Part shown: positions 31,932 through 47,107 of the stretch, piece by piece
Numbering within the stretch: the stretch's first letter is position 1
Layout: the number at the start of each line of letters is the position of its first letter
From: an uncultured Anaerolineaceae bacterium
GTDB lineage: Bacteria > Chloroflexota > Limnocylindria > Limnocylindrales > CSP1-4
Direction: 5' to 3'
Length of the DNA stretch: 64,000 nt
NCBI GenBank assembly: GCA_964626755.1
Contig: CAZVGO010000004.1
Location: forward strand, 11,272-75,271
Made by a program: the position numbers and the translations under genes
Notes under the pieces: generated by a model
The model's input: the letters and a program-made list of their open reading frames with translations, nothing else
Databases searched by the model: none
Told to the model about the DNA's origin: nothing

Positions 31932-34900
31932 GTGACCCTGGCCCCGAACGACTTCACCCACCTCCACGTCCACTCCGAGTTCTCGCTGCTGGACGGCCTC
32001 GGCCGGATCACCGACCTCGTCGACGCCGCGGCGCGGCAGGGCTTCGACTCGCTCGCGCTGACTGATCACGGTGCGCTTTACGGCGCCGTCGCGTTCTGGC
32101 AGGCCGCGACGAACAAGGGGATCAAGCCGATCATCGGCGTCGAGACGTACGTCGCCCGCCGATCGATGACCGACCGCGAGGGCAAGGCTGATGCCCAGCC
32201 CTACCACTTGATCCTCCTCGCGAAGGACTGGACCGGCTACCGGAATCTCTGCCGGCTCGTCACCGACGCGCACCTGGACGGGTACTACTACAAGCCCCGA
32301 ATCGACCGTGAATATCTCGCCCAGCACAGCGAGGGGCTGATCGGGCTGAGCGCCTGCCTGAACGGCGAGGTGTCGCGGGCCCTCGAGGTCGACGACTGGG
32401 ACCTCGCGCGCCGGCTCGCCGGAGAGTACGGCGAGATCTTCGGCAAGGACGGCTTCTTCCTCGAGCTCCAGGACCATGGCCTGCCGGAACAGCGCCGCCT
32501 CAACGAGCAGCTCATCCGGCTCGGCCGCGAAACCGGCCTGCCCCTCGTCGTGACGAACGACCTCCATTACGTCAACGAGGCCCAGAGCTCGGCCCACGAC
32601 GTCCTGCTGTGCGTCGGGACCGGCAACAACCTCGACACGGCGGGTCGGCTGAAGTTCGAGACGAACGACTTCTGGCTGAAGTCGGCCGCCCAGATGGCGG
32701 CGATCTTCCCGGACCAGCGCGACGCGATCCTCAACAGCCGCCGGATCGCCGAAATGTGCGCCCTGGCAATGCCGCTCGGCCAGCTGCGGATGCCGCACTT
32801 CCCGCTGCCCGACGGAGAGACCGCCGAGAGCTGGCTCCGCAAGGAGTGCCAGGCCGGCCTCGTCCGGCGCTACGGGACGGTCACGCCTGCGCTCCAGGAG
32901 CGGCTCGACTACGAGCTGGGCGTCATCACCTCGATGGGCTACGCCGGGTACTTCCTCATCGTGGCGGATTTCATCGCGTTCGCCCGCCGGGAGGGGATCC
33001 AGACGACCTGCCGGGGCAGCGCGCCCGGCTCGATCGTCACCTACACGCTCGGGATCACGCCAGTCGACCCGATCCTCTACGGGCTCCCGTTCGAGCGCTT
33101 CCTCAACCCGGACCGGGTCACGATGCCGGACATCGACGTGGATTTCGAGGACAGCCGGCGCGACGAGGTGATCGCCTACGTCACCCGCAAGTACGGCTCG
33201 GACCACGTCGCCCAGATCATCACGTTCGGGACGATGCTCGCCCGGGCTGCGATTCGCGACGTGGGGCGGGTGCTGGGGCACAGCTACGGGGAAGTCGACC
33301 GGATCGCCAAGGCCGTCCCGAATCAGCTCGGGATCAAGCTGGACGAAGCGCTCGAGATCGCCCCGCAGCTGCGCGAGATGTACGACGCCGATCCGGGCGT
33401 CAAGCGGGTGATCGATTTCGCGAAGCAGCTCGAGGGCGTCGCGCGGAACGCCTCGACCCACGCCGCGGGCGTGGTCATCTCGCTCGAACCGCTGACCGAG
33501 CTCATGCCGCTCCAGAAGGCGACGAACTCGGAAGCGCTGATGACCCAGTACGAGATGCACGCGATCGAAGCACTCGGCCTGCTGAAGTTCGACTTCCTCG
33601 GCCTGAGCAACCTGACGATTCTCCGCCACGCCGTCGACCTCGTCCGCCAGCACCGGGGCGCGGAGATCGGCGCGATCGACCTCGACGCGATCCCGCTCGA
33701 CGACGCGAAGACCTTCGAGCTCCTCGCATCGGGCGAGACGACGGGCATCTTCCAGCTCGAGTCGGCCGGGATGCGCCGCTACATCCGGGACCTCAGGCCG
33801 ACGTCCGTCCTTGACCTCGCGGCAATGGTCGCGCTCTACCGCCCCGGGCCGATGGACAACATCCCCGCGTACATCCGGCGGAAGCACGGCCAGGAGAAGG
33901 TCACCTACCTCCATCCGCTGCTCGAGCCGTACCTCGAGAAGACGTACGGGATCTTCGTCTACCAGGAAGACATCATGTCCGCCGCGATCGCCCTCGGCGG
34001 GTTCACCGGCCCGGAGGCGGACACCCTCGGCTACGCGATCCGCAAGAAGAAGTCGTCGGTCCTTCGCGCCCAGAAGGAGAAGTTCGTCACCCAGGCCGCC
34101 GAGCGGGGAGTCGACGCCCGGATCATCGACCAGGTCTTCGCGGCTTTCCAGCCGTTCGAGCGATATGGCTTCAACAAGGCTCACGCGACGTGCTACGGGC
34201 TGATCGCGTACCAGACGGCATACCTCAAGGCGAACTACACGGTCGAGTACATGACCGCCGTCCTGACCGCCTTCCGCTCGAACGAGGAAAAGGTGGCTGC
34301 AGCGATCGCCGAGTGCCGCCGGATGGGCATCGAGGTCCTCCCGCCGGACGTCCACCGGTCCGATATCGAGTTCACGGTCGAGGGTGACGCGATCCGGTTC
34401 GGGCTGCTCGCCGTGAAGAACGTCGGGCAGGGGGCGATCGAATCGATCATCCGCGCGCGGACCGACGAGGGGGAGTTCCGCTCCCTGCGCGATTTCTGCG
34501 AGCGAGTCGACCTGCGTCTCGTCAACTCGCGGGTCATCGAGGCGCTTGCCTGGGTCGGCGCGCTCTCGGCGTTCGGCCATCCCGCCCAGATCGTCGACGC
34601 GCTGCCGACGATCCTGCCCGCCGCCCAGAACTCACAGCAGCAGCGCGCGACCGGCCAGGTGTCGGCGTTCGACCTCCTGTTCGCCGAGGTCGCCGACGCG
34701 CCGTTGCCGCCGAGCCCCGAGGCGACCCGCCGCGAGCGGCTCCGCAAGGAGAAGGAGCTCCTCGGCCTCTACCTGTCCGAGCACCCGATGGGCGAGGTCG
34801 CCGAGCAGGTCGGCCAGTTCGTCAATGCGTACAGCGGCGACCTGAAGGACGAATCCCTCGACGGCCAGCGGCTCGTCATCGGCGGGATCGTGACCGGCTT

Positions 34901-35762
34901 CCGGACGATCATCACGAAGGCCAGGTCGACGATGGGCGTCGCGACGCTCGAGGACCTCCAGGGGACGATCGAGGTCGTCGTCTTCCCGAAGCTGTACGAG
35001 CAGACTGTCGGCATCTGGCGGGAGGGCTCGATCCTTCTCGTCGCCGGACGGGTCGACCACCGGGGCGAGGAAGCGTCGCTGCTCGCCGACCTCGTGATGG
35101 AATGGGACTCGGCGCTCGCTGCCGGCCCTGAGGCGTTCGGGCGCCAGGTCGCCGCGGGGGATCGCGGCAGCTTCCGGCGGCGCGGCCCGGGTGGCCCCGG
35201 CCCCACGAACGGCTCGTCGAACGGACACGGACCCGACTCCGGGCCGGGACGCGCGCCGGTCGCGGTCGGGCCAGGCCGTCCCTCCGAGCTCGCGGCCGCC
35301 GCCCCGGTTCGCGTTTCGCCGTTGCGAGCCGGTGCAGGCGGTTCCGAGTCTGCGTCGCGGCTGCCGCCGATCGCGCCGGCCGAGCCAATCCCGACGTGGG
35401 GCGAGCCGGTCGGCACCGCCGGCTCGTACCCCGCGGGCGACCCGGACGAGCCGGCCCTTCCCGACGAGGCGCGGGCAAAGGCGGCAGAGGCGGCAGGCGC
35501 GCCAACCCGGCCCGTGGACGCCGGTCCCGGACAGGTGCTGCACGTCCGGTTCATCGGCCCCGCCGAGCGCCTCGTCGGCGCGATGGAGGCATTCAAGGGC
35601 CTCCTCCGGGACCGCCCCGGCGCGACGCAGGTCGTGCTCCACTTGCCCGGTCGCGACGGCGGGGAGATGGAGCTTCGGCGCGGTGTCGCGTACGACGCAG
35701 AGCTCGTCGCCGACGTCCGCCGCCGGCTCGGGGAAGGCGCGGTCGAGCTCAGCCTGGACTGA
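31932..35762 (+). CDS. dnaE: DNA polymerase III alpha subunit, with an ~130-aa low-complexity/novel C-terminal extension
   Basis: PHP domain HLHVHSEFSLLDG; polymerase core; OB fold. GTG start. Confidence 0.9.
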   Translation: MTLAPNDFTHLHVHSEFSLLDGLGRITDLVDAAARQGFDSLALTDHGALYGAVAFWQAATNKGIKPIIGVETYVARRSMTDREGKADAQPYHLILLAKDWTGYRNLCRLVTDAHLDGYYYKPRIDREYLAQHSEGLIGLSACLNGEVSRALEVDDWDLARRLAGEYGEIFGKDGFFLELQDHGLPEQRRLNEQLIRLGRETGLPLVVTNDLHYVNEAQSSAHDVLLCVGTGNNLDTAGRLKFETNDFWLKSAAQMAAIFPDQRDAILNSRRIAEMCALAMPLGQLRMPHFPLPDGETAESWLRKECQAGLVRRYGTVTPALQERLDYELGVITSMGYAGYFLIVADFIAFARREGIQTTCRGSAPGSIVTYTLGITPVDPILYGLPFERFLNPDRVTMPDIDVDFEDSRRDEVIAYVTRKYGSDHVAQIITFGTMLARAAIRDVGRVLGHSYGEVDRIAKAVPNQLGIKLDEALEIAPQLREMYDADPGVKRVIDFAKQLEGVARNASTHAAGVVISLEPLTELMPLQKATNSEALMTQYEMHAIEALGLLKFDFLGLSNLTILRHAVDLVRQHRGAEIGAIDLDAIPLDDAKTFELLASGETTGIFQLESAGMRRYIRDLRPTSVLDLAAMVALYRPGPMDNIPAYIRRKHGQEKVTYLHPLLEPYLEKTYGIFVYQEDIMSAAIALGGFTGPEADTLGYAIRKKKSSVLRAQKEKFVTQAAERGVDARIIDQVFAAFQPFERYGFNKAHATCYGLIAYQTAYLKANYTVEYMTAVLTAFRSNEEKVAAAIAECRRMGIEVLPPDVHRSDIEFTVEGDAIRFGLLAVKNVGQGAIESIIRARTDEGEFRSLRDFCERVDLRLVNSRVIEALAWVGALSAFGHPAQIVDALPTILPAAQNSQQQRATGQVSAFDLLFAEVADAPLPPSPEATRRERLRKEKELLGLYLSEHPMGEVAEQVGQFVNAYSGDLKDESLDGQRLVIGGIVTGFRTIITKARSTMGVATLEDLQGTIEVVVFPKLYEQTVGIWREGSILLVAGRVDHRGEEASLLADLVMEWDSALAAGPEAFGRQVAAGDRGSFRRRGPGGPGPTNGSSNGHGPDSGPGRAPVAVGPGRPSELAAAAPVRVSPLRAGAGGSESASRLPPIAPAEPIPTWGEPVGTAGSYPAGDPDEPALPDEARAKAAEAAGAPTRPVDAGPGQVLHVRFIGPAERLVGAMEAFKGLLRDRPGATQVVLHLPGRDGGEMELRRGVAYDAELVADVRRRLGEGAVELSLD

Positions 35763-37388: not shown

Positions 37389-37445
37389 GATGGGGGAGCG
37401 TGGTGCCGAAGCCGGGATTTGAACCCGGACGAGGTTGCCCTCAAC
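37389..37445. repeat. attL: 57-bp direct repeat, a displaced copy of the 3' end of tRNA-Leu
   Basis: Identical over 57/57 bp to 47020..47076. It contains only the T-arm and acceptor 3' half, so it is not a functional tRNA. Confidence 0.85.
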
Positions 37446-37575
37446 GGTGTTTGAGAGCGCCGCCCGGCGTCCGGGAGCGTCTGCCGGTGTTCGGTTTGTG
37501 CTCCCGGACCGTTCTATTCGCCGGGCGGCGTCCGCCGCTGTGCGAGCGTGAAGCTGCCAGATAAGCTGCCAGGCG

Positions 37576-37983
37576 TCAGGCGTCGACGAGCTCCGGCTCA
37601 GCCTCTTCGCGGGCGGCCTTCCGCGCGGCCGCCCCGTTCGGCCAGTGCCCTCGAGGAATGTCCGGGTGCGCCTTCGCGAACGCGACGGCGACCTCGACGA
37701 GGCCGTTGACGAGCTCCTGCGTGGCCGCCCGCTCGACGATCGTGCGGACGTCATGGATCGCCTGCTCGAGCTCGGCGTACTCGCTCGGCCGCATGTCGGC
37801 CCACAGCGTGCCGGGATGGTCCGCCGATGGGCTGAAGTCGTCCGTCCAGACCGCGCGGACCAGGGCACGGTCGCTGTCGATGAGCGGTCGCAGCCAGTCG
37901 AGCTGGATGTCCTCGTCGGCGTACCCGCCGCCGATGCTCTGCGTGAGGGCCTCGCGGATCTCGGTCTCGGTCGGGGCGGTCAT
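37576..37983 (-). CDS. Hypothetical protein (island cargo, attL-proximal)
   Basis: 135-aa ORF with no recognisable domain. The start of the downstream ORF overlaps its stop. Confidence 0.45.
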   Translation of the reverse strand: MTAPTETEIREALTQSIGGGYADEDIQLDWLRPLIDSDRALVRAVWTDDFSPSADHPGTLWADMRPSEYAELEQAIHDVRTIVERAATQELVNGLVEVAVAFAKAHPDIPRGHWPNGAAARKAAREEAEPELVDA

Positions 37984-38177
37984 CGGTCAGTCCTCCTGTC
38001 GTCGAATAGCGGGAGCCTGAGCACACGGCGCGTCGCCATCGCGGCCCGTGCCTCAATTTCCCGCAGACGCTCCTCGCGGACAAGCCGCTCATGGAGCTCG
38101 GGGTCGTCCTGGAGCCGCCACAGGCGCGCCAGCGCGCCCACCGTGCGCCACGTCTCGGCCGTCTCGGGATCGACCAT
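37980..38177 (-). CDS. Small hypothetical protein (65 aa), Arg/Glu-rich
   Basis: ATGA overlap with the downstream ORF. Confidence 0.3.
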   Translation of the reverse strand: MVDPETAETWRTVGALARLWRLQDDPELHERLVREERLREIEARAAMATRRVLRLPLFDDRRTDR

Positions 38178-38397
38178 CGCTCACCTCCTGAACGCCAACG
38201 CCCCCGACGACGGTGAGTACAGCACCGACGCCAGGGGCGAGGTCAGGATGACGTATTCGGGGGGCCGCTGTACTCGGCCCGGTGATCCTACGCCGTCGCA
38301 GCTGCCCCGGCAAGCCGGCTCTACCCCGCCGGCGGCCGTCGAGTGGCCGTGGTGACCGGATTCGCCCGTGTCACACTTTCGGGCGGCCTGCCGGGCG

Positions 38398-38712
38398 CTA
38401 GGCGTCCAGGTTGCGGGGACCGCCGATTGGAGTGGCGCTCTCGTCGAGCGGACCGATCAACATCCGGACAAGCTCGCCGCAGTCCGGGCACCCGGAAGGC
38501 AAGGCCAGCTGACCGCGGGATCCGCACGCGTGACACTCGAACAGGACGGTGCCCGGCTCGCGGGCGAGGAGCTCCTCGCCACAGTCGGGGCAGGTGCTCG
38601 TGTCGACGTCCGGCCGCGCCGGCGAGATGAGGGTCCAGCACGCCAGGCAGGAGAACAGGCGCCGGCCGGCGAGGTCCTCCGGGGTCGACGGTCGGACGCG
38701 GGAGCTCGTCAC
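38398..38712 (-). CDS. Zinc-ribbon protein (four CxxC motifs)
   Basis: CLAC...CPDC...CHAC...CPDC; starts 2 nt after the tape-measure-like stop. Confidence 0.45.
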   Translation of the reverse strand: MTSSRVRPSTPEDLAGRRLFSCLACWTLISPARPDVDTSTCPDCGEELLAREPGTVLFECHACGSRGQLALPSGCPDCGELVRMLIGPLDESATPIGGPRNLDA

Positions 38713-38713
38713 C

Positions 38714-40462
38714 TCAGTAGCCCTCGGTCGACCAGCGGAGCGCGGCCCGCCGGAGCGCTCGACCCGTCTCGCGCTCGACGTCGCCCGGCTGGACGCCGTA
38801 GATGTTCTGGGAGCCGATCAGCGGGCCGCCGCGCCCCCCGCCGCCCGAGAGGATCAGCCTCGCCGCCGCCGTGATGGTCTCGCTGTCACCGGCGGGCGCC
38901 ACGGCCGAATGCCTGGGCAGGAAGACGGTCTCGGGGCCACGCTCGTTCATCCGGGCGAACCCGCCCATCCAGTCGCGGTCGCCGCCGGCGAGGCGCGGGA
39001 TCGTCTTGAGGCCGAGGCCTGGCCAGTCGAACCGGGCGACGACGCCGAATGGCGTCTCGAACCCGGGGATGTGGATCTGGATGCCGTTCAGGTGGCGGAT
39101 CATCCCGTTGACGAGATCGATGACGAAGTTGATCCCGCCCTTGATGACGTTGCCGATCCCCTTCCACAGCCCGGTGAAGAACCCTGTCAACCCCTGCCAC
39201 GCGTCCGTCACGAAGCTGGCCGCCGCGACGATGGCGCCTGCCGCGACGTCGAAGACGCCCACCGCGATCGAGAGGGAGGCCTTGACGGCCACGGCGATCC
39301 CGCCGAAGACCCGCCCGAACAGGTTGCCGAGGAACGCGACCACGCCCGGGATCGTGTCGCCGAGCCACTTCACGACGACCGCGAAGATGGGCTGGAGGCG
39401 CTTCCACACGGCCTCGAGGAAGCTGCGGATGCCGCCCCAGTCGGATTCCCACGCCTCGAACAGGATGGCGACGGCCGCGACGACCGCGCCGACCGCGAGG
39501 ATGAGCGGGGCGAGTGCCAGGACCATCGACACGATCGCCGGGACCACGGCCGCAGCGATCACGAGGGCCAGAGCGGTCGCGATCGGGACCGCGTGCTCCT
39601 GCACGAAGGCGAAGACGGCCTCGAGCTCCGGTCGCAGCTGCTCGAACAGGTCCTTGCCCGCCTGGATCGCGGGGCCGAGCATGTCCCGGAGGCCGGTCGC
39701 CAGTGTGATCACGGCAGGGTAGAGGGCGGTGATGATGCCCTCGACCATCTCGGCGAACATCGCGGACATTTCGTTGCCCACGCGGATGCCCTCGGCCGTG
39801 CCGGCGGCGTAGGCGGCCTGCGCGTCGGTCGTCTTCTCGAAGAGCAGCTGCTGGGTCGCGAGCGCCTTTGCCTGCTCGAGCGCCGAGCCGGTCAGTGCGT
39901 CCTGGCCGTTCTTGAGCAGGCGGGCCGACACGTCGGCCTCGGTGATCGAGATCCCGAGCTCCTTGAGGCCGTCCCGCTCGCCGAGCAGGCTCTTCTGCAG
40001 GACCACGGCGACCTCGGCCGCGGTGCGGGTCCCGCCCGACCACTCGGACAGCGCGCCGGACAGGCCGATGATGTCGGTCGACATCTCGGCGGCCTGCTCC
40101 CGGGACATGCCCATCGGGACGAGGAGGTCGCCGAGGTTCGCCGCGAGCCCGGTCGCCTCCCGCCGGGTGAGGCCCATCGCCGCGGCGCTCGTGGCGGCCC
40201 ACTTCTCCACGACGCCCAGGCTCTCGCCGAAGACGGTCTGCGCCTTCGCGTCCATCGCCTCGAATTTGGCCCCGACGTCGAAGACCTGCTTGCCGATGGC
40301 GAGCGCGGCACCGAGGGCCGTGGCGATGACGACCGTGGCCTTCTTCGCGACGTCGGCGAGCGAGGTGAACAGGCCCTTCGAGCCCTTCACGCCCGAGTCG
40401 AACTTCGAGCGGTCGAGCGCCAAGGTCGCATAGAGCGCCCCGACGGGGATCCCGGCGGCCAT
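38714..40462 (-). CDS. Phage tail tape-measure-like protein (TP901-type core), short form (582 aa)
   Basis: N-terminal LALDRSKFDSGVKG...AKFEAMDAKAQTVFG pattern, a long Ala/Val/Ile-rich hydrophobic segment, and a Gly-rich C-terminus. These are typical of TMPs. Confidence 0.65.
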   Translation of the reverse strand: MAAGIPVGALYATLALDRSKFDSGVKGSKGLFTSLADVAKKATVVIATALGAALAIGKQVFDVGAKFEAMDAKAQTVFGESLGVVEKWAATSAAAMGLTRREATGLAANLGDLLVPMGMSREQAAEMSTDIIGLSGALSEWSGGTRTAAEVAVVLQKSLLGERDGLKELGISITEADVSARLLKNGQDALTGSALEQAKALATQQLLFEKTTDAQAAYAAGTAEGIRVGNEMSAMFAEMVEGIITALYPAVITLATGLRDMLGPAIQAGKDLFEQLRPELEAVFAFVQEHAVPIATALALVIAAAVVPAIVSMVLALAPLILAVGAVVAAVAILFEAWESDWGGIRSFLEAVWKRLQPIFAVVVKWLGDTIPGVVAFLGNLFGRVFGGIAVAVKASLSIAVGVFDVAAGAIVAAASFVTDAWQGLTGFFTGLWKGIGNVIKGGINFVIDLVNGMIRHLNGIQIHIPGFETPFGVVARFDWPGLGLKTIPRLAGGDRDWMGGFARMNERGPETVFLPRHSAVAPAGDSETITAAARLILSGGGGRGGPLIGSQNIYGVQPGDVERETGRALRRAALRWSTEGY

Positions 40463-40499
40463 CAGGCGTGCACCGGCTGGCGGATCGCGCGGATCGTGG

Positions 40500-40832
40500 T
40501 CATCTCATCTCCTCGTTCACAGGGTCGGACGGTGGCGTCCAGGACAGCGGTGCGCTCAGGCGCGCGCTCATCTGGAGCTCGAGGACGCGATCGCGGGCCC
40601 GATCGCTCGCGGTGCACGCCTCGCACGGTGGCGGGTCGTCGACTCGCCGGCGATCGACCGGGCCGCAGCCTCGCCGCGCCTCGAGGGCCTCGAGCAGCCC
40701 GCGGCTGAGCCGGTACGCGCCCTCGTGGTCGCCCCGCTCGACGAGGACCTCGAGCTCCGGCAGGTCCACGCGCCACCAGGTATCGCCGGGCGGACGATGC
40801 CGAGGAGCGGCGGGAGCGCGCAGGACGGCCAC
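40500..40832 (-). CDS. Hypothetical protein (Cys-containing), between the TerS-like and tape-measure-like genes
   Basis: GTG at 40832, 12 nt after the upstream stop. The N-terminal part of the track ORF is rejected as non-coding. Confidence 0.25.
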   Translation of the reverse strand: MAVLRAPAAPRHRPPGDTWWRVDLPELEVLVERGDHEGAYRLSRGLLEALEARRGCGPVDRRRVDDPPPCEACTASDRARDRVLELQMSARLSAPLSWTPPSDPVNEEMR

Positions 40833-40843
40833 GACCCGACAGC

Positions 40844-41248
40844 CTATCCCGCGCGCCCGGCGCCGCGGCGAGCCCAGCGGGCCCGCGCTGCCGAACGTGC
40901 GCGGACCGATGCCAGGCTTGTGATGCGATCGGTCCCGTCGCCCGGCTGCGCCGTCGTGGCGTCGGGCAGGTCGAGCTGCGCCGCCAGGCGGGCCACGATG
41001 ACGCGATGGGCCCGCTCCTCGGCAAGCAGGGGGTGGGCGACCGTCTGGCCCCGGCTGCCGGTCACCACGGCACCGTCGGTCGCGACGATCGCGCGGACTT
41101 CGTCGACACGATCGAGGGACCGCGCCAGCTCGTGGAGGAGGGCGAGCTCGCGCGGTGCGAAGTCGTACGTGGCGAGGAGCTTCCGCCACAGCCGGCGGCC
41201 ACGGCCACCGGGTGCCAGGTCGGGAGGTGGTGAGCGGCGCGCCGTCAC
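40844..41248 (-). CDS. Possible phage small terminase subunit (P27-like), tentative
   Basis: The segment RLWRKLLATYDFAPRELALLHELARSLDRVDEVRAIVATDGAVVTGSRGQTVAHPLLAEERAHRVIVARLAAQLDLPDA resembles the P27-family pattern. GTG at 41248. Confidence 0.35.
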   Translation of the reverse strand: MTARRSPPPDLAPGGRGRRLWRKLLATYDFAPRELALLHELARSLDRVDEVRAIVATDGAVVTGSRGQTVAHPLLAEERAHRVIVARLAAQLDLPDATTAQPGDGTDRITSLASVRARSAARARWARRGAGRAG

Positions 41249-41411
41249 GAATAACCACCCGCTAATCGGGCGTTGTGGCCGGTTTGGGGTGCATATACGG
41301 CCGATAATCGGCGCGACCGGACCAGGGGGGGGACCCCCAAGTCCCGTCGAGGGAGCGGCCACCTGCGCACGCCCGCCACCGTGCGTACGTGCTTGCGGGC
41401 CAGTTTCCCGG

Positions 41412-41732
41412 TCATGCCGGAGCCCGCCGCGGTGCCACTGCCCCGACGTGGACGTCGGTCGGGCCGTAGGAACCGTCCGGCCTCCACCCGACGCGTCGCT
41501 CCCAGCGCTGGGGCGGCCGCGGTGAGCCGTCGGTGCCGAGCAGCTTCCTGATCGCCGGCGAGCTGTCCTCCGGCCGACTGCGGACGTCGCCGGCGACCCG
41601 GTCCCGCGCCTGGCCGAGCCGCTCGGCGGTCCGAGCTCGATCACGTCCGGCGGCCGAGGCCTGAGCGACGCGATCGGCCGATGTGACCCGGCCTGACGGC
41701 ATGCTCTCTCGCGGCAGCTCGCGGTAGGCCAT
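41412..41732 (-). CDS. Hypothetical protein
   Basis: ORF whose ATG lies 2 nt after the upstream gene's stop. Function unknown. Confidence 0.3.
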   Translation of the reverse strand: MAYRELPRESMPSGRVTSADRVAQASAAGRDRARTAERLGQARDRVAGDVRSRPEDSSPAIRKLLGTDGSPRPPQRWERRVGWRPDGSYGPTDVHVGAVAPRRAPA

Positions 41733-41734
41733 CG

Positions 41735-42247
41735 TCAGCCCCGCGGGATCGCGGCCACGTCGGCCACGGTATCGAACGTCTCGGCCGCCGGCGGATCCCA
41801 GTCGGCCAGGCCGTTCGACGCCTGGTGATCCGCCAGCTCGCCGATCGCTTTCCAGACGCTGCCCATGTCGCCGGTACGGATCGTCTCGGTCCAGGCTTCG
41901 ACGTTCGAGTCCCAGGCGAACTGCGCGTGCTCGGTCAGCGACTTGAACACGGGATCCTTGTGGAGCTTGGCCCGGCGAGTGGCCGCGGACTCGATGCGCG
42001 ACTCGGCGATCGTCGAATGGGCCATCTGCCGAAGAGCCTCGTACCGCGGCCGGTACGCGGCATAGGCCGCCTTCCGGTCATCCCGCTGGCGGTTCGTCTC
42101 CACCTGGCGATCGACATACTCCTCGAGCTCATTGGCGAGGCGCTTCCTCTTCACGTCCGGGTCTTCGGCCATCCCGGGCGGACCCTCCCAGGCGTCGGCG
42201 AGGTTGGTCAGGCGCTGTCCGGGGTTCGTGCGCTTCGGCTTCGTCAT
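41735..42247 (-). CDS. Hypothetical phage-associated protein (170 aa)
   Basis: MTKPKRTNPGQRL...; the ATG overlaps the upstream ORF stop (ATGA). Confidence 0.5.
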   Translation of the reverse strand: MTKPKRTNPGQRLTNLADAWEGPPGMAEDPDVKRKRLANELEEYVDRQVETNRQRDDRKAAYAAYRPRYEALRQMAHSTIAESRIESAATRRAKLHKDPVFKSLTEHAQFAWDSNVEAWTETIRTGDMGSVWKAIGELADHQASNGLADWDPPAAETFDTVADVAAIPRG

Positions 42248-42711
42248 GCGGCGATCGTCGTCCCTGCCGACTTTGCGCGCGACTTTGCACAGCGACCGCG
42301 GCCGCCGCACCACGATCGCGGTCGCCCCATGCCCCGAGCTGGCAGCGGGGCGCCGCATCCGCGGCAGCGGCCCGGCCGGGGTTTCCGCGCGAAAACTGTC
42401 CGCGGCCCCTTGGCCTCGAGCTCGGCGAGGTCGAGCATGCGGCCGGCGGCCCGCCGCAGGGCCTCGACCATGACCCGCGGCAGGCCGTGCCCGTGGTCGT
42501 CGGCGATCGCGACGAGCGCGCGCGACAGGTTCTCCGGCGTCCATTCGGGGCCGCTCACAGCGCCAACCCGACGCGCTCCAGGCAACGCGGGCACCGCGAT
42601 CGAGCTGGCCAGGCGTTGCGCTCGGCCGTCGGCGTCGCCCCGCAGGCTGTCCGGCCCGACCCGGCGCGTGGCGGCTGGGCGTGGCCCACGCCATCGCGGC
42701 CGGCGACCCAC
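42244..42711 (-). CDS. Hypothetical small basic protein with a C-terminal Cys cluster (CRGCG...WCGGRGRC). Start uncertain
   Basis: Its stop overlaps the downstream ATG. Confidence 0.3.
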   Translation of the reverse strand: MGRRPRWRGPRPAATRRVGPDSLRGDADGRAQRLASSIAVPALPGARRVGAVSGPEWTPENLSRALVAIADDHGHGLPRVMVEALRRAAGRMLDLAELEAKGPRTVFARKPRPGRCRGCGAPLPARGMGRPRSWCGGRGRCAKSRAKSAGTTIAA

Positions 42712-42747
42712 ACGAACCGCCCGACCGGCATCAGCTCGTCGGGCGGG

Positions 42748-44418
42748 TCACGATGCCCACCCGGGCTCGACGAGGCCCTGAGCAGCGATCGCCGCGACGT
42801 CGTCGGGCATACCCTCGACCCGGTCCTCGTCGCCGCCGTCGAAGATGCCGACCCCCTCGTCGCCGACTGACACGGCCTCGACTGACACTGACACCACGTC
42901 ACCCCCTACGGGGGGAGTGACGCTGTCAGCGCGATCTACTGACATGACAGTGTCAACGCCTGACGCTGACGCCCCGCCCACGCTCGCGGGGCCACTGACA
43001 GGCGGACTGACAGGCACTGACACGGCCCCCGACACGCGAAGTGGCATGTCAGGCTCCACGCGCCCGGTCTCGCGGAGCTTCGCGATCTGCCGCCAGACCG
43101 TCCGCTCGGACAGCTCGAGGTAGGTCGCGATGGCCCCGGCGTCGGCGTACCCGGTGGCGATGCAGCCGTGAATCTTCTCCATCGTGCTGACGCCGAGATC
43201 CTCGCCGGCGACGACCTGGACGACGTCGAACGTGCCGCCCTCGGCCCGGAGGACGAGCTGCGCGTGGGGGGCGCGCTTGCGGACGGTCCAGAGGACGCGC
43301 TGGGCGCCGGCGTCGGCCATGAGCGCGACGGTGTCGGCCTGGCGGGTCCACTGACCCATGACGTCGGCGAGGGCGGTCCCGTGCTGGGCGTTCGGCTCGG
43401 GCTTGCCGCGGGCCTTCGCCCCGCCGGCGACCCTGGCCGGCTTGACGAGGTGGACGAAGACAATGATCGCGCAGCCGTACTGGCGGGCGAGGCCCCGGAG
43501 GAACCGGATCGCGGCCTTGAGCTCCTTGCCCCACTCGTCGCCGAGCATGCTCGAGCCGGTGTCGAACATCACGACCGCGGGCTCGACCCGCTCGATCGAC
43601 GCCCGGATGTAGGCCTGGTCGAGCGGGTCGGTCAGCGACAGGCCCTCGAGGCTGACCCCCCAGTAGTCGGCCAGGTCGGCCCGGGTGAGGCCGAGGCGGG
43701 CCAGGGTCTCTTCCTCGCGCCGGACCTCCTCCTCCTCGCCGTTCTCGACGTCGATCGACAGGACGCGCCCCGGGCGCGGGATCCGGTAGTGGTTGAAGAG
43801 CGCACCGTGGCCGGTCGCCTTCCGGATCCCGAGCTCGATCCGGGCGTGCGATTTGCCAAGGCCCTCGGGCCCCGCGACGACGAGCAGCCGACGTCGCCGG
43901 AGGAGGCTGTCGATCTCCCAGTCGTCGACCATGGCGGCCGCCGCATCGGCCTCGCTCCGCGGCCGCGGCCAGGGACGCTCCTCAGCGTGCCTTTCAGTGA
44001 CGTGAATGGCACGCGCCGGCGTCCGGGCCGCCCGGTCGCGTTCGAGGCCGGCGACGGCGGCCAGGTAGTCCTCCGGGCTGTCGTAGCCGGCGGCGTGCAG
44101 CGAGTCGACGAGTCGGGCCCGCCAGCCGGCGGCGTCGACCACGATCGCCTCACGCTCCTCGTCGGTCAGGCGATTCCACGGGTCGATCCGGTCCGCCGAG
44201 GCCGTGAGCTCAGCCTCCGCGCGGATCCCGGCGCTGTCCGCCGGCGCGTGGCCGTTCGGCTTGCTCTTGCGAACGTTCCGCGCGGAGACTTTCCGGGCCC
44301 CTGGCGCCGCCGGCAGCCACACCGGCGCGCCGGCGTTGGCATCGCCTGCAGCTTTCGGCGCGGCCGTGCCCTCGAAGAACGACGCGACCTCGGCTTCCTT
44401 CGCGGAACGTCTGGTCAT
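42748..44418 (-). CDS. Replication protein: RepA-like/AAA_25-type RecA-fold ATPase with a C-terminal HTH and a low-complexity VSV-rich tail
   Basis: Walker A VVAGPEGLGKS; Walker B-like VVMFDTGSS; HTH ATYLELSERTVWRQIAKLRETG. The ATG at 44418 is inside track ORF 42748..44562. Confidence 0.65.
   Translation of the reverse strand: MTRRSAKEAEVASFFEGTAAPKAAGDANAGAPVWLPAAPGARKVSARNVRKSKPNGHAPADSAGIRAEAELTASADRIDPWNRLTDEEREAIVVDAAGWRARLVDSLHAAGYDSPEDYLAAVAGLERDRAARTPARAIHVTERHAEERPWPRPRSEADAAAAMVDDWEIDSLLRRRRLLVVAGPEGLGKSHARIELGIRKATGHGALFNHYRIPRPGRVLSIDVENGEEEEVRREEETLARLGLTRADLADYWGVSLEGLSLTDPLDQAYIRASIERVEPAVVMFDTGSSMLGDEWGKELKAAIRFLRGLARQYGCAIIVFVHLVKPARVAGGAKARGKPEPNAQHGTALADVMGQWTRQADTVALMADAGAQRVLWTVRKRAPHAQLVLRAEGGTFDVVQVVAGEDLGVSTMEKIHGCIATGYADAGAIATYLELSERTVWRQIAKLRETGRVEPDMPLRVSGAVSVPVSPPVSGPASVGGASASGVDTVMSVDRADSVTPPVGGDVVSVSVEAVSVGDEGVGIFDGGDEDRVEGMPDDVAAIAAQGLVEPGWAS
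42866..43026. repeat. Iteron-like cluster: at least 8 direct copies of (A)CTGACA(C/G/T) plus a palindromic TGACAGTGTCA
   Basis: Copies at 42866, 42881, 42888, 42938, 42994, 43006 and 43016. The palindrome is at 42945..42955 and a tandem TGACGC x2 at 42961. All lie inside the 3' end of the rep gene. Confidence 0.6.
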
Positions 44419-44703
44419 GGCCGCGGGCAGCACGCGCCGACCTCCTCGAGCAGCCGCAGGTCGGTGCGGACAGCGGAGGCCTCCGCCCGCCGGCCGACGG
44501 CGTCGAGGTGATCGCGGAGCTGCTCGAGGTGCCTGGCCAGGCGCTCGCGGGCCGTCCGGCAAGCGATCCCTTCGCGCGGATGACCGCGACGAGCTCGATG
44601 CCCCCGACGCGGGGCCGGCCGGCTGATCCCGAGCCGGCCCGCGTCGGGGAGGAGGACGTGATCCGCAGAAGACGACGGATCAGGTTGTGGCCCGCGTCGA
44701 CGC

Positions 44704-44761
44704 GGCCAATGCGCCGTCGAGGACCTCAGATGGTCAGGTCGACGCGGATCGCGCATTGGCC
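44704..44761. promoter_or_regulatory. Large hairpin (11-bp perfect arms ggccaatgcgc/gcgcattggcc) spanning the 3' end of the Xis-like gene
   Basis: Seen directly. It could be a terminator or a protein-binding site between the regulatory and replication modules. Confidence 0.3.
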
Positions 44762-45015
44762 TCGCGCCTCCCGACGTCGCCGTTGACGTAGCTCGCGATC
44801 GCGCCCGCCGGCACCAGGCGCCGGCGACCGATGGTGACGGTTCGAAGCCGGCCCGCCGCGATCTCGCCGTAGAGTGCGGATCTGCCGATTCCGAGCCGCT
44901 CCGCGGCAAGCGTGGTCGACAGGAGCTGCTCGGGCGCCGTCGCAGGCGCGATCGCGAGCTCCTCGCGGAGCGCGTCGACGAGCTCGGCAACGGCGGCCAC
45001 CAGGCGATCGCTCAT
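44734..45015 (-). CDS. Excisionase-like HTH DNA-binding protein (MerR/Xis superfamily)
   Basis: LSTTLAAERLGIGRSALYGEIAAGRLRTVTIGRRRLV is a classic actinophage Xis/HTH pattern. Confidence 0.6.
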   Translation of the reverse strand: MSDRLVAAVAELVDALREELAIAPATAPEQLLSTTLAAERLGIGRSALYGEIAAGRLRTVTIGRRRLVPAGAIASYVNGDVGRREANARSAST

Positions 45016-45200
45016 CGAGCGGGCACCTTCGGCCGCCCGGCCACCGCCTCACGCTCGATCCCGTCGACGAGGATGCGCAGGGCCTCGCGCTTGGGGTCCC
45101 GGTAGTTCTGCCGCGCCAGGTCGCCGAGCGCGTCGCTCGTCTCGGGCGGCAGGGTCAGAACGAGCCGCGGCCACGTCCGCCGGGTCGAGTGTGAGTCCAT
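45012..45200 (-). CDS. Ribbon-helix-helix (CopG/Arc-like) DNA-binding protein
   Basis: LTLPPETSDALGDLARQNYRDPKREALRILVDGIER; its stop overlaps the Xis-like ATG. Confidence 0.6.
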   Translation of the reverse strand: MDSHSTRRTWPRLVLTLPPETSDALGDLARQNYRDPKREALRILVDGIEREAVAGRPKVPAR

Positions 45201-45241
45201 GAGGCGTATTGGGCCGGACTACAGGCCCTCGTGTCGCGGAC

Positions 45242-45272
45242 CAAAAGCGGCAGCCGCCAACAGCCGCTTTTG
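45242..45272. terminator. Perfect 10-bp inverted repeat (caaaagcggc/gccgcttttg) between the int-proximal operon and the RHH gene
   Basis: Seen directly. Candidate terminator and/or operator. Confidence 0.4.
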
Positions 45273-45279
45273 CCCGCCC

Positions 45280-45753
45280 TCAGAGTCGGCGGCGTTGCGC
45301 CTCAGCCTTGGCCCATGCCCACGTCTTGCCAGCCGCTCGCAGCTGCGCCCGGATCCAGCGCTCCTCGCCGACCGCCGAGTTGCGGCCGAAGTCGTCCTGA
45401 GTCGGCGGCCACGACCCCGACCATTCGACGAGCGCCGCGACGATCCGCTCCGCTGCCGCCATCGCCGGCTCCGCCTCGGCATCGGGCAGCGTGATCGCGC
45501 CGTCGCGCGCGACCACCCCAAACCGCTCGCACCGCCGACAGCGGACAACCACCGTGCCATCGCGACCCGAGAGCCAGTCGAGCTCCGGACCGTCGCGCAG
45601 CCATGGGGCGACACAGTTCGCGGCGTGGGCGATCGATCGCGGTGCCGCGAGCAGCACGGCGGCGGGCATCGCGCGGAGCTCTGGGGGTTCAATCGGGTGC
45701 CGGAGGGCTTCGCTCAGCCAGCGGATGGCGTCCTGAGCCGTCTCGTCGGTCAT
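45280..45753 (-). CDS. Hypothetical protein (157 aa), co-transcribed with the integrase
   Basis: The ATG overlaps the integrase stop (ATGA). Contains CRRCERFG. Confidence 0.5.
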   Translation of the reverse strand: MTDETAQDAIRWLSEALRHPIEPPELRAMPAAVLLAAPRSIAHAANCVAPWLRDGPELDWLSGRDGTVVVRCRRCERFGVVARDGAITLPDAEAEPAMAAAERIVAALVEWSGSWPPTQDDFGRNSAVGEERWIRAQLRAAGKTWAWAKAEAQRRRL

Positions 45754-46892
45754 CGCGCACCGCCTCCCAGCGCCCGATCCAGGGCGTCTGCTGCCGCGCG
45801 TCGCTGGTCCGGCGTGACGTGCGAGTAGACGTCGGCGGTGATCGTGATCGACGAATGACCGAGGGCCCGCGATACCTCGAGGAGCGAGGCGCCCTGGGCA
45901 AGCATGAGCGACGCCGCGGTGTGCCGGAGGTCGTGGAGGCGCACCGGGAGCCCGAGCCGGTCGGCGGCCGCGCGGAAGGCCGCGGAGACCGTGTACGGCG
46001 CCCACGGCCGCCCCAGCGCGTCCGTGAAGGCCAGGCGGTCCCGGTCCTGCCACGATGCGCCGGCGGCGAGGCGCTCGGCCGCCTGGCGGGCTTTCTGGCG
46101 CCGGAGGCCGTCGATCGCGGTCGTCGTCAGGTCCACGGTCCGGCGGCTCCGGGCCGTCTTCGGCTCCGCGAGCTCCCACCCGCCGCCGTGGGCCCGCGAC
46201 AGGGAGCGCCGGACCGTGAGCGATCGCCCCTCGAGGTCGACGTCGGTCCATCGCAGCCCGAGCAGCTCGCCGAGCCGGAGCCCGGTGCCGGTCGCGACCG
46301 CGAAGAGCGGCCCGAATGGATCGTCCGCAGTCGCGTCGATCAGGCGGCCGACCTCGCCGGCCGTCAGGGCCCGCATCTCGCGCCGCTCGAGGCGCGGCGG
46401 CCGCGCCAGGGCGGCCACGTTCCGGGTGAGCAGCCCGTCGCGCTGCGCGTCGTGGAGCGCGCGCCGGAGGGTCGATCGGGCGTGTCGGATCGTCTGCGAC
46501 GAGAGCCCGCGACCGGCGAGCTCGGCCATCGTCCGCTCGACGTGCGCCGGCGTCAGCTTGGTCAGCGGGATCCGCGCCAGGGCGGACCAGTAGGCCGAGA
46601 CGTGACGGGCGTACTCGCGGTGCGTGGCGGCCCGGAGTCGCGGCCGGACCGCGACGACCCATCCCGCCAGGTAGGCGCCCGTCGTCTCGCCGGTCGCGAA
46701 CCCCGCGCTCGCCTCGCGGCGCAGCGCCTCGAACTTGCGGACGACGTCGGCCCGCGTGCGACCCGACACATAGCGGCGGACGCTCCGGGTCCCGTCGGGG
46801 TGGGGGAGTACGAGCGACCCGCGGAGTCGGCCGTCGGCGGTCGGGTAGATCGCGCCTTCGCCGGCGGATCTCCGGGCGGTAGACTTGGCCAT
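45750..46892 (-). CDS. int: Tyrosine-type site-specific integrase (phage integrase family)
   Basis: MAKSTARRSAGEGAIYPTADGRLRG N-terminus. The C-terminal catalytic region has RHTAAS...HSSITIT...Y (R-H-R-Y pattern). It sits adjacent to the tRNA. Confidence 0.9.
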   Translation of the reverse strand: MAKSTARRSAGEGAIYPTADGRLRGSLVLPHPDGTRSVRRYVSGRTRADVVRKFEALRREASAGFATGETTGAYLAGWVVAVRPRLRAATHREYARHVSAYWSALARIPLTKLTPAHVERTMAELAGRGLSSQTIRHARSTLRRALHDAQRDGLLTRNVAALARPPRLERREMRALTAGEVGRLIDATADDPFGPLFAVATGTGLRLGELLGLRWTDVDLEGRSLTVRRSLSRAHGGGWELAEPKTARSRRTVDLTTTAIDGLRRQKARQAAERLAAGASWQDRDRLAFTDALGRPWAPYTVSAAFRAAADRLGLPVRLHDLRHTAASLMLAQGASLLEVSRALGHSSITITADVYSHVTPDQRRAAADALDRALGGGAR

Positions 46893-47019
46893 TGGGTGGC
46901 GTCCTCCGTAGCAGGAGCGCGACCTTGACGGCCTCCGGTTCGCGCCGGGGGCCGTCGCGCTATGTCCGTCAGTGTACGCCATTGTCGCGGACCGCGAAGC
47001 TGCCGCGAAGCTGCCAGGG

Positions 47020-47076
47020 GTGGTGCCGAAGCCGGGATTTGAACCCGGACGAGGTTGCCCTCAACGGTGTTTGAGA
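47020..47076. repeat. attR: 57-bp direct repeat forming the 3' part of the intact tRNA-Leu
   Basis: Identical to 37389..37445. Confidence 0.85.
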
Positions 47077-47107
47077 CCGTCGCGTCTGCCAGTTCCGCCA
47101 CTTCGGC
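47021..47107 (-). tRNA. tRNA-Leu (anticodon CAA), class II with a long variable arm and encoded CCA
   Basis: Acceptor stem GCCGAAG/CTTCGGC, anticodon loop CTCAAAC, T-loop GGTTCAAATCC, long variable arm. Confidence 0.85.

Follow-up and report, generated by a model that had tools for sequence, protein, structure and literature searches.

A gene resembling that of a phage tape-measure protein (TMP) lies in the chromosome of an uncultured Anaerolineaceae bacterium without the other genes of a phage tail, which raises the question of what kind of element carries it and for what use. It occupies positions 38714–40462 of a stretch of 64,000 nucleotides (assembly GCA_964626755.1, contig CAZVGO010000004.1, positions 11,272 to 75,271). 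This stretch is called the window here, and coordinates refer to it unless another locus is named. In a preliminary description, three explanations were offered for this gene: the last relic of a deleted structural module, a satellite-encoded factor that could re-size the tail of a helper phage, or a TMP-derived protein with another role, for example at the membrane. According to the analysis presented below, it is somewhat more probable than not that a small integrative satellite of phages, similar to the phage-inducible chromosomal islands (PICIs), took up a complete siphophage TMP gene as cargo, and that this TMP is used in the tail of the helper.

The open reading frame (ORF) is located on the minus strand, begins with an ATG codon, is intact and encodes 582 aa, as had been described. 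Its GC content at third codon positions (GC3) is 0.96, the maximum in the island; since this exceeds the values of the neighbouring host genes (0.91–0.94), the ORF is a real gene and not a chance reading frame in high-GC DNA. The protein gave 16 PHROG matches, 14 of which are annotated as "tail length tape measure protein" (top match phrog_991, 7.9e-25). A profile of this protein and 27 homologues was compared with the PDB and matched TMPs of solved structure, namely 80alpha gp57 (6v8i, 8.8e-16) and FtbJ (9j1k, 1.8e-23). A tblastn search against GenBank phages revealed matches in 231 records; an annotated TMP gene was found under the match in 20 of the 20 rows listed, and the matches listed belong mostly to Microbacterium, Arthrobacter and Curtobacterium phages. 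These three lines of evidence bear out the TMP character that had been proposed from the letters.

Analysis with Pfam did not assign the protein to any family at E ≤ 0.01, including PF20155 (TMP_3) and PF10145 (PhageMin_Tail), the family to which the preliminary description had pointed. The aligned phage relative P0106 bears both PF10145 and PF20155 in the equivalent region, and the core of the window TMP is therefore a divergent relative of these domains rather than a Pfam member. The C-terminal lysozyme or peptidase motif that had also been considered was not found using Pfam. Hydrophobic segments are located at residues 38–61, 283–340 and 359–421. Residues 290–429 consist of 21% Ala, 17% Val and 8% Ile and residues 430–582 of 18% Gly, in agreement with the hydrophobic Ala/Val/Ile stretch and the Gly-rich C-terminus noted earlier. 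Modeling with AlphaFold 2 led to a long protein that is helical throughout, with a pLDDT above 90 for residues 55–260 and low confidence elsewhere; low confidence outside the core is usual for TMPs. A Foldseek search of this model against the PDB gave nothing below E = 0.001 and only generic helical repeats, an uninformative result that is expected for a TMP. In addition, the protein keeps 11 invariant positions and most of the near-invariant positions of the family. Judged by its sequence and architecture, and not by its genomic context, the window gene is a genuine and complete siphophage TMP gene.

Completeness was assessed by comparison with the 208 TMP relatives obtained in a database search. 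The relatives listed range from 362 to 810 aa, the TMP ORFs in 88 loci are mostly 440–750 aa long, and the phage copy P0004 (locus L004) is likewise 582 aa long, so that the word "short" used in the preliminary description does not apply. Residues 1–581 of the window TMP align with residues 1–666 of P0106, a phage TMP of 667 aa, and because this alignment runs from end to end, the window TMP is complete and not a fragment. The identity is unevenly distributed along the protein. Residues 1–42 and approximately 430–582 are ~80% and ~65% identical, respectively, to P0106, the TMP of an L007-type phage, whereas the core (residues 59–289) is 66–68% identical to the TMPs of the L001/L004 type and is unlike P0106, which has its PhageMin_Tail domain there. 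By these alignments, the window TMP is a mosaic with the ends of one phage type and the core of another.

The L007-type phage encodes a Terminase_4 small terminase subunit (TerS), a large terminase subunit (TerL), an SPP1-type portal, a scaffold and capsid genes, and has a GC content of 72%. In siphophage tails, the TMP has its termini at the tip complex and near the head, respectively, and each residue accounts for about 0.15 nm of tail length. The ends of the window TMP would thus fit an L007-like tail, and its core and the length difference of 85 aa (~13 nm) would set it apart. As regards base composition, GC3 is uniformly 0.96 over the mosaic segments of the TMP gene, 0.84–0.85 in the adjacent genes for TerS and orfC, and 0.92–0.95 in genes of L007-type phages. 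This contrast is consistent with a history of the TMP gene that differs from that of the island backbone and is phage-like. Note that L007 itself (GCA_035477825.1, contig DATIKG010000285.1) belongs, at 72% GC, to a metagenome-assembled genome (MAG) labelled "Patescibacteria group bacterium"; the binning or the label is probably wrong.

The TMP gene is a part of an island of 9.62 kb, which is inserted in a tRNA-Leu gene, is bounded by 64-nt direct repeats and contains all its genes on the minus strand. The target of integration is tRNA-Leu(CAA) (47021–47107, minus strand, predicted by ARAGORN), the 3' part of which is present in a second copy at the opposite end of the island. The integrase-proximal att repeat (47020–47083) lies within the intact tRNA gene and the distal one (37400–37463) is the leftover 3' fragment of the tRNA at the other end; the two copies are 97% identical and 9620 nt apart, start to start. 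The flanks are ordinary chromosome containing genes for DnaE and PolA. Using Pfam, PHROGs and custom hidden Markov models (HMMs), no genes for capsid, portal, protease, TerL, tail tube, chaperone, baseplate or lysis proteins (lysins) were found in the island or elsewhere in the 64-kb window. The earlier statement that the island lacks every other tail and capsid gene thus holds for the structural genes, but it passed over a small terminase gene located at 40844–41248.

Four genes make up the recognizable backbone of the island. The tyrosine integrase (Int; 380 aa, 45750–46892; PF00589, 1.5e-21; phrog_1, 1.5e-68) is 36–54% identical to the integrases of related loci. The excisionase/AlpA-like protein (Xis; 93 aa, 44734–45015) belongs to the HTH_17 family (PF12728, 2e-06) and is 62–67% identical to its counterparts in loci L133 and L107. 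The replication protein (Rep; 561 aa, 42748–44433) contains an AAA_25 domain (RepA/DnaB-like ATPase; PF13481, 8e-15) and a C-terminal HTH_11 domain (PF08279, 5e-06). Rep has PHROG primase/helicase matches, its N-terminal Prim-Pol domain is missing and its first ~150 residues are free of domains, while PF09250 (Prim-Pol) is present at the N-terminus of the close homologues P0123, P0128, P0130 and P0139–P0142; the primase part of Rep seems to have been lost or replaced. TerS (134 aa), which is the phage-derived gene conserved in the island family, is of the Terminase_4/P27 type (phrog_1496, 1.4e-17), and its match to PF05119 (4.8e-05) lies just under the Pfam cutoff. TerS is followed directly by orfC (~100–110 aa, 40500–40835), which has a frame GC3 of 0.88–0.90, ends 37 nt before the start of the TMP gene and is 36–41% identical to the ORF after TerS in the related loci L132, L133 and L136.

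In order to reach related loci, homologues of Rep and TerS were used. The order Int ... Rep ... TerS is kept in at least five other loci (L132, L133, L135, L136/L137 and L145), which are 8–10 kb long where their ends are visible; an HTH_17 Xis-like gene was called in all of them except L135. Locus L132 (9.8 kb, an NCBI MAG contig) contains Int, Xis, Rep (79% identity), TerS (85%) and orfC (41%), as well as counterparts of the small ORFs described below, namely orfA, orfB (59%) and orf135 (~30%). Locus L133 (10.1 kb) contains Int, orf62, Xis, Rep (76%), orfA, orfB (54%), TerS (79%), orfC (40%) and orf135 (54%). Locus L135 adjoins a tRNA-Leu(TAA) gene and encodes Int, a different protein at the Rep position and TerS (74%). 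In L136/L137, chromosomal genes follow directly after the island, which contains Int, HTH_17, AAA_25 Rep, TerS (68%) and an orfC homologue, and L145, from a Candidatus Dormibacteraeota MAG, encodes Int, HTH_17, AAA_25 Rep and TerS (45%).

No TMP gene and no capsid or tail module was found in any of these five loci. As this applies to all five, and as those with visible ends are small, a small island free of structural genes is the normal state of the family. What varies is the slot after TerS and orfC. In the window it is filled by the TMP, a zinc-ribbon protein and orf65, in L133 by proteins of 141, 303, 92 and 89 aa, in L132 by proteins of 320, 164 and 130 aa, in L135 by a ParB_N-like protein and in L136 by small ORFs. 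For the 303-aa cargo protein of L133, homologues were found among the head genes of the Streptomyces phages phiScoe10 and phiCAM, so that cargo from phage virion modules occupies this slot in L133 as well. Based on this comparison of gene content, the islands would form a family of PICI-like satellites, and the TMP would be acquired cargo and not the remainder of a decayed prophage.

Searches for further members extended the backbone. A scan of the genome collection with Rep revealed one locus, L089 (a MAG contig of an uncultured Anaerolineaceae bacterium), a more remote relative of the backbone with an integrase and a Rep of 71% identity; downstream of Rep, an 898-aa MmeI-type restriction-modification enzyme is encoded (L089 5037–7733), and the locus contains neither TerS nor TMP. 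The Int–Rep backbone is therefore common to elements of the packaging type and to elements with defence cargo. When metagenomes were scanned with the Rep alignment, 42 loci were obtained, of which not one has a TMP, and the IMG/VR scans with Rep and TerS gave no relatives. One further locus with a Rep of 67% identity (L091 12270–13528) contains a 137-aa ORF matching head-maturation protease PHROGs (1e-26) and then a fragment-like match; this locus may represent a relative that forms capsids, or one in decay.

The organization of the window island was compared with that of known satellites. In the SatelliteFinder definition of PICIs (NAR 2023, PMC10085698), the order of the integrase, AlpA/Xis (HTH_17), replication protein and terS genes, their location on one strand and the accessory genes after terS are the same as in the window. 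If a Rep without Prim-Pol is counted as the primase/replicase, four of the five PICI core components are present, and by its gene content the island would be a PICI of "type B". There are differences as well. No gene of the Cpm or Ppi type, for capsid morphogenesis or packaging interference, was recognized in the island using Pfam and PHROGs, and the TMP is a tail gene, a forbidden component, so the island departs from the "no tail genes" rule; the PICI model rejects clusters with tail or holin genes, or rescues them as exceptions with a single forbidden gene (PMC10085698). In addition, PICIs have hardly been described in the uncultured high-GC lineage that hosts the window island.

The closest precedent for the TMP is provided by the PLE satellites (PLEs) of Vibrio cholerae. 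PLE11, PLE1 and PLE4 encode a TMP of their own and form chimeric tails (Nature 2026, PMC12987554). The PLE TMP is 95 aa shorter than that of the helper ICP1, the tails are 10 nm shorter, and this TMP is selectively incorporated, replacing the helper TMP in satellite virions (PMC12987554). It also renders the PLE immune to its own tail-assembly inhibitor Rta, a small protein that targets the helper TMP (PMC12987554). Like these elements, the window island is an integrative satellite that lacks a tail module and encodes a complete TMP of a different length from that of the putative helper, with a gap of 85 aa here if the helper is P0106-like and of 95 aa for PLE11; the zinc-ribbon protein near the TMP can be compared with the small protein Rta of PLE11. 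However, the helper would be a siphophage and not a contractile-tailed phage, and the backbone is TerS-based and PICI-like rather than PLE-like. PLEs have a chaperone gene, and some a baseplate hub, and neither is found beside the window TMP; orfC and the zinc-ribbon protein could not be assigned to a family of this kind. The PLE11 TMP is only 20% identical to that of ICP1 (PMC12987554), whereas the ends of the window TMP are 65–80% identical to a phage TMP; moreover, the PLE system was demonstrated experimentally and the window island is known from sequence alone.

Other satellites show partial likenesses. The EPIP satellites of Mycolicibacterium contain a TMP and alter tail lengths, the tails being reported as longer, and putative tmp genes have been reported in capsid-forming PICIs (cf-PICIs). 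Both the EPIPs (~10–11 kb, in high-GC Gram-positive hosts) and the cf-PICIs resemble the window island in having TerS and a TMP and no genes for tail tube, tip or lysis, but they encode capsid, scaffold and head–tail connectors, none of which is found in the window island; EPIPs use a serine integrase and the window island a tyrosine integrase. The PICMI satellites of Vibrionaceae (Nat Commun 2024, PMC10803314) are likewise minimal: besides an integrase, an AlpA-like regulator and a replication protein, they encode iolg (orf157 here), which overlaps the integrase gene at ATGA and is needed for excision in PICMI (PMC10803314). Unlike the window island, PICMIs lack terS and structural genes, and the sequences are unrelated. 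As for the TMPs of temperate siphophages (80alpha gp57, PDB 6v8i; PhageMin_Tail/TMP_3), they agree with the window TMP in sequence family, helical core, hydrophobic segments, Gly-rich C-terminus and length range, but the window TMP is not flanked by chaperone or distal-tail genes and is located between TerS–orfC and the zinc-ribbon gene on a 9.6-kb island.

The Int–Xis–Rep–TerS layout and the PLE precedent make a satellite factor that could re-size the tail of a helper the best-supported of the explanations in the preliminary description, and its function would be as follows. When a helper siphophage replicates, the island would excise and replicate, and its TerS would redirect the helper large terminase to island DNA. 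The TMP would be co-transcribed with TerS and orfC and would join the assembly of the helper tail, replacing the helper TMP or competing with it. It would use the chaperones, tube and tip proteins of the helper, which would be needed because the island encodes none. Through its helper-like N- and C-termini it would make contact with the tip complex and with the proteins that complete the tail, while the foreign core and the different length would alter the length of the tail, by ~13 nm if the helper TMP is of the 667-aa P0106 type. The foreign core may also alter the sensitivity to factors that target TMPs, such as the exclusion systems of recipient lysogens or an inhibitor of the satellite's own. 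The zinc-ribbon protein would act as a partner of the TMP, either as a dedicated chaperone or substitute for one, or as an inhibitor of the helper TMP or of helper tail assembly. Possible pay-offs are an escape from TMP-targeted exclusion or defence and a means of telling satellite particles from helper particles.

Several points weigh against this reading. The TMP is found in only one member of the island family, and with a single carrier, a chance capture of recent date would give the same picture as selection for the TMP within the family. The helper phage is hypothetical, and excision, packaging, expression and incorporation of the TMP are predicted steps. Unlike PLE, the island has no tail assembly chaperone, and a compatible helper chaperone would be needed. 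Ordinary phages often have mosaic TMPs as well, and the chimera may therefore be older than the capture. Between the island TerS and that of the L007-type phage, no similarity was detectable, and because the phage that shares the TMP ends has such a different TerS, the helper assignment is weak. Lastly, the second pair of zinc-ribbon and TMP genes, described in the next paragraph, is located on a contig of 5.4 kb, where its context is incomplete.

The zinc-ribbon gene (104 aa, 38398–38712; DUF7129, 4e-08) appears to be in an operon with the TMP gene. It opens 1 nt past the TMP stop codon (TGA-g-GTG, with GAGG upstream) and encodes four CxxC pairs (C22/25, C41/44, C60/63 and C75/78); the junction, the cysteine pairs and the DUF7129 match confirm the earlier observation of a four-CxxC zinc-ribbon ORF directly after the TMP. 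Modeling with AlphaFold 2 was poor (pLDDT 56). An exhaustive HMMER search of 1.84 billion representatives revealed one true homologue, P0170 (89 aa, 46% identical, 6e-11), in which 8 of 8 Cys residues are conserved and which is found on contigs of several samples (L140–L142). An IMG/VR scan with the zinc-ribbon protein gave no relatives. The order of genes at the P0170 locus is four small non-structural ORFs, a TMP of 655 aa, a 114-aa HK97-gp10-like tail-completion protein, the zinc-ribbon protein and a reverse-strand DUF3800 gene. The 655-aa TMP is of the P0106 type (PHROG TMP match, 6.5e-36), the 1.9 kb upstream of it contain no gene for a chaperone or a tube protein, and a scan with the L140 TMP gave only distant phages. 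Both members of the zinc-ribbon family thus follow shortly after a TMP gene that is not part of a normal tail module, which suggests that the two proteins could be a functional pair. It can be proposed, tentatively and with a fairly small chance of being right, that the TMP and the zinc-ribbon protein form a portable two-gene module for "tail takeover" that moves between satellites and in which the chimeric TMP builds the tails. Within such a module, the zinc-ribbon protein could replace the missing chaperone or could block the helper TMP, as Rta does in PLE11.

A different use of the same genes would be interference, in which the TMP, perhaps together with the zinc-ribbon protein, poisons the tail assembly of infecting phages, protects the hosts and favours the satellite. 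Satellites commonly disturb the assembly of their helpers, and the known targets include the assembly of tails (Rta in PLE11, Tai, Tab); the related backbone of L089 has the MmeI-type restriction-modification enzyme as defence cargo, and native ends with a foreign core resemble a dominant-negative subunit. However, a search with PADLOC on ten island proteins gave no defence family, only a negligible CARF match on Rep, and the TMP retains every conserved feature of functional TMPs. In addition, a satellite in need of helper tails would itself suffer from poisoned tails if it had no bypass, and no bypass is visible. Interference is for these reasons considered unlikely, although it overlaps with capture for use in the helper tail, since incorporation and interference can coexist, as they do in PLE11.

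If the island were instead a decaying prophage, it would be the remnant of a temperate siphophage of ~35–40 kb from which the regions from TerL to the chaperones, the distal tail and the lysis genes have been deleted, and the TMP would be a functionless relic. The order TerS ... TMP is indeed that of phages, and TMP homologues are otherwise found nearly always within full modules. The nearest relatives (L001, L002, L004, L005 and L007) lie in complete siphophage modules with the order TerL, portal, protease, capsid, small head–tail and tail genes, TMP and distal tail proteins, and among 80 IMG/VR loci, most of those with at least 8 kb upstream show TerL, portal, protease or the major capsid protein (MCP) at the expected distance. 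One observation on the phage copies is that in L004 (7297–9455) the 582-aa TMP is followed by a 136-aa ORF with a "major tail protein" PHROG match and then by reverse-strand genes; distal tail genes are absent and this order is unusual. Decay would also agree with the long stretches of the island that show a weak coding signal and with the presence of the TMP in one family member only.

The details of the window locus do not fit such decay well. Here the TMP gene is preceded by TerS and orfC and followed by the zinc-ribbon gene, orf65 and orf135, which is not a tail module. When the island was compared with related phage loci using tblastn and tblastx, the TMP alone matched, and no other gene or intergenic stretch did; the structural HMMs run over the window revealed no remnants or pseudogenes of other structural genes. 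The TMP ORF is intact, can be aligned from end to end and has the highest GC3 of the island, and neither the att repeats nor the integrase gene is damaged. One would have to assume two clean deletions that arose independently and lie exactly on either side of an intact TMP gene, and the five other loci with the same backbone, 8–10 kb where their ends are visible, also have no structural module. The homologues are thus consistently embedded in complete tail modules, as the preliminary description had envisaged for the case of a truncated copy, but the window copy is not a truncated fragment. With a full-length gene, no flanking pseudogenes and five module-free relatives, the relic of a deleted structural module is disfavoured and we consider this origin quite improbable. 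Note that a deletion scar was also considered for the 381 nt that separate TerS from the TMP; this was rejected, as the apparent gap holds orfC, which is conserved in related islands.

Finally, it is very improbable that the island is a non-phage mobilizable island, similar to actinomycete integrative and conjugative elements (AICEs), with a TMP-derived protein in a membrane or cell-wall role or as a passenger: the three strongly hydrophobic segments, the resemblance of the Int–Xis–Rep backbone to actinomycete integrative elements and the non-phage cargo on this backbone in L089 would allow it, but Pfam revealed neither an FtsK/SpoIIIE-type Tra, Spd or relaxase domain nor a peptidoglycan hydrolase domain in any island protein, hydrophobic segments and a Gly-rich C-terminus are ordinary in phage-borne TMPs, and TerS is conserved across the family at 45–85% identity (79–85% in L132/L133, 74% in L135, 68% in L136 and 45% in L145), which indicates phage packaging. 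As to co-option away from tails in general, the third explanation of the preliminary description, the evidence points in neither direction; the protein gave no enzymatic domain and no match to a defence family.

The remaining ORFs of the island are small. The first, orf157 (45280–45753), is supported by a gene call and overlaps the integrase stop codon at ATGA; a role in recombination directionality or regulation is possible. Such an ATGA overlap with an ORF of ~126–160 aa is located at 45750–45753 in the window, at 1393–1396 in L132, 1414–1417 in L133, 1568–1571 in L135 and 5345–5348 in L145, and the overlapping ORF is 156–160 aa long in L132, L133 and L135. The encoded proteins are mostly not homologous, the only exception being the pair from L133 and L135 (62% identity). 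The protein encoded by orf62 (45012–45200) has a weak Arc/RHH-like match (phrog_38161 at 0.025) and is 61% identical in L133; L145 has an RHH_5 gene at this position. A small Cys-containing protein is encoded by orfA (42244–42603; frame GC3 0.93–0.97), with 50% identity over ~40 aa in L132 and L133; its conservation in related islands is weak and confined to the C-terminal part. Next to it, orf170 (41735–42247) was predicted by gene calling and has no Pfam or PHROG match, and orfB (106 aa, 41412–41732), upstream of TerS, shows a GC3 signal and is 54–59% identical in L132 and L133. Note that orfA, orfB and orfC lie in what seem to be long intergenic gaps; they were missed by the gene calls on the Logan contig and are kept in related islands, where orfC always comes after TerS. 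In the variable segment, orf65 (37980–38177) was also predicted by gene calling, without a family match. The att-distal orf135 (37576–37983) is 54% identical in L133 and ~30% in L132, and because it is conserved at the att-distal end of related islands, it closes the variable slot.

A scan for promoters and terminators revealed no promoter and three terminator-like sites, none of which was judged informative. By coordinate arithmetic, the 9623 bp of the Logan unitig L006 span positions 37427–47049 of the window, with both ends inside the repeat. Its interpretation as an excised circle was rejected, as it ends 30 nt into each att copy, as would a k = 31 unitig broken at a repeat. Outside the island, the DnaE homologue (31932–35762) has a C-terminal extension of ~200 aa, in which a Gly/Pro/Ala-rich stretch of low complexity is followed by a short ordered-looking tail.

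Until 2025–26, satellites were believed to take over the tails of their helpers unchanged. Satellite-encoded TMPs have since been published, and the new details of the window island are the minimal PICI-like setting, the chimeric TMP, the missing chaperone and the zinc-ribbon partner. The island suggests that the capture of TMPs extends to a minimal, TerS-only, PICI-like family of uncultured high-GC bacteria. Because SatelliteFinder forbids tail genes, islands bearing a TMP are likely under-reported, and this speaks for a less strict "no tail genes" rule in satellite mining. The window TMP is also a natural construct for asking which TMP regions make assembly contacts and which are swappable, its chimeric design hints at the kind of helper to which it is fitted, and the zinc-ribbon protein is a candidate TMP partner. 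The locus would be of modest interest if the TMP were no more than a recent passenger. If the two-gene module is real, current satellite finders would systematically miss a class of elements, and satellites of the PICI type in uncultured soil bacteria would need only two genes to control tail assembly.

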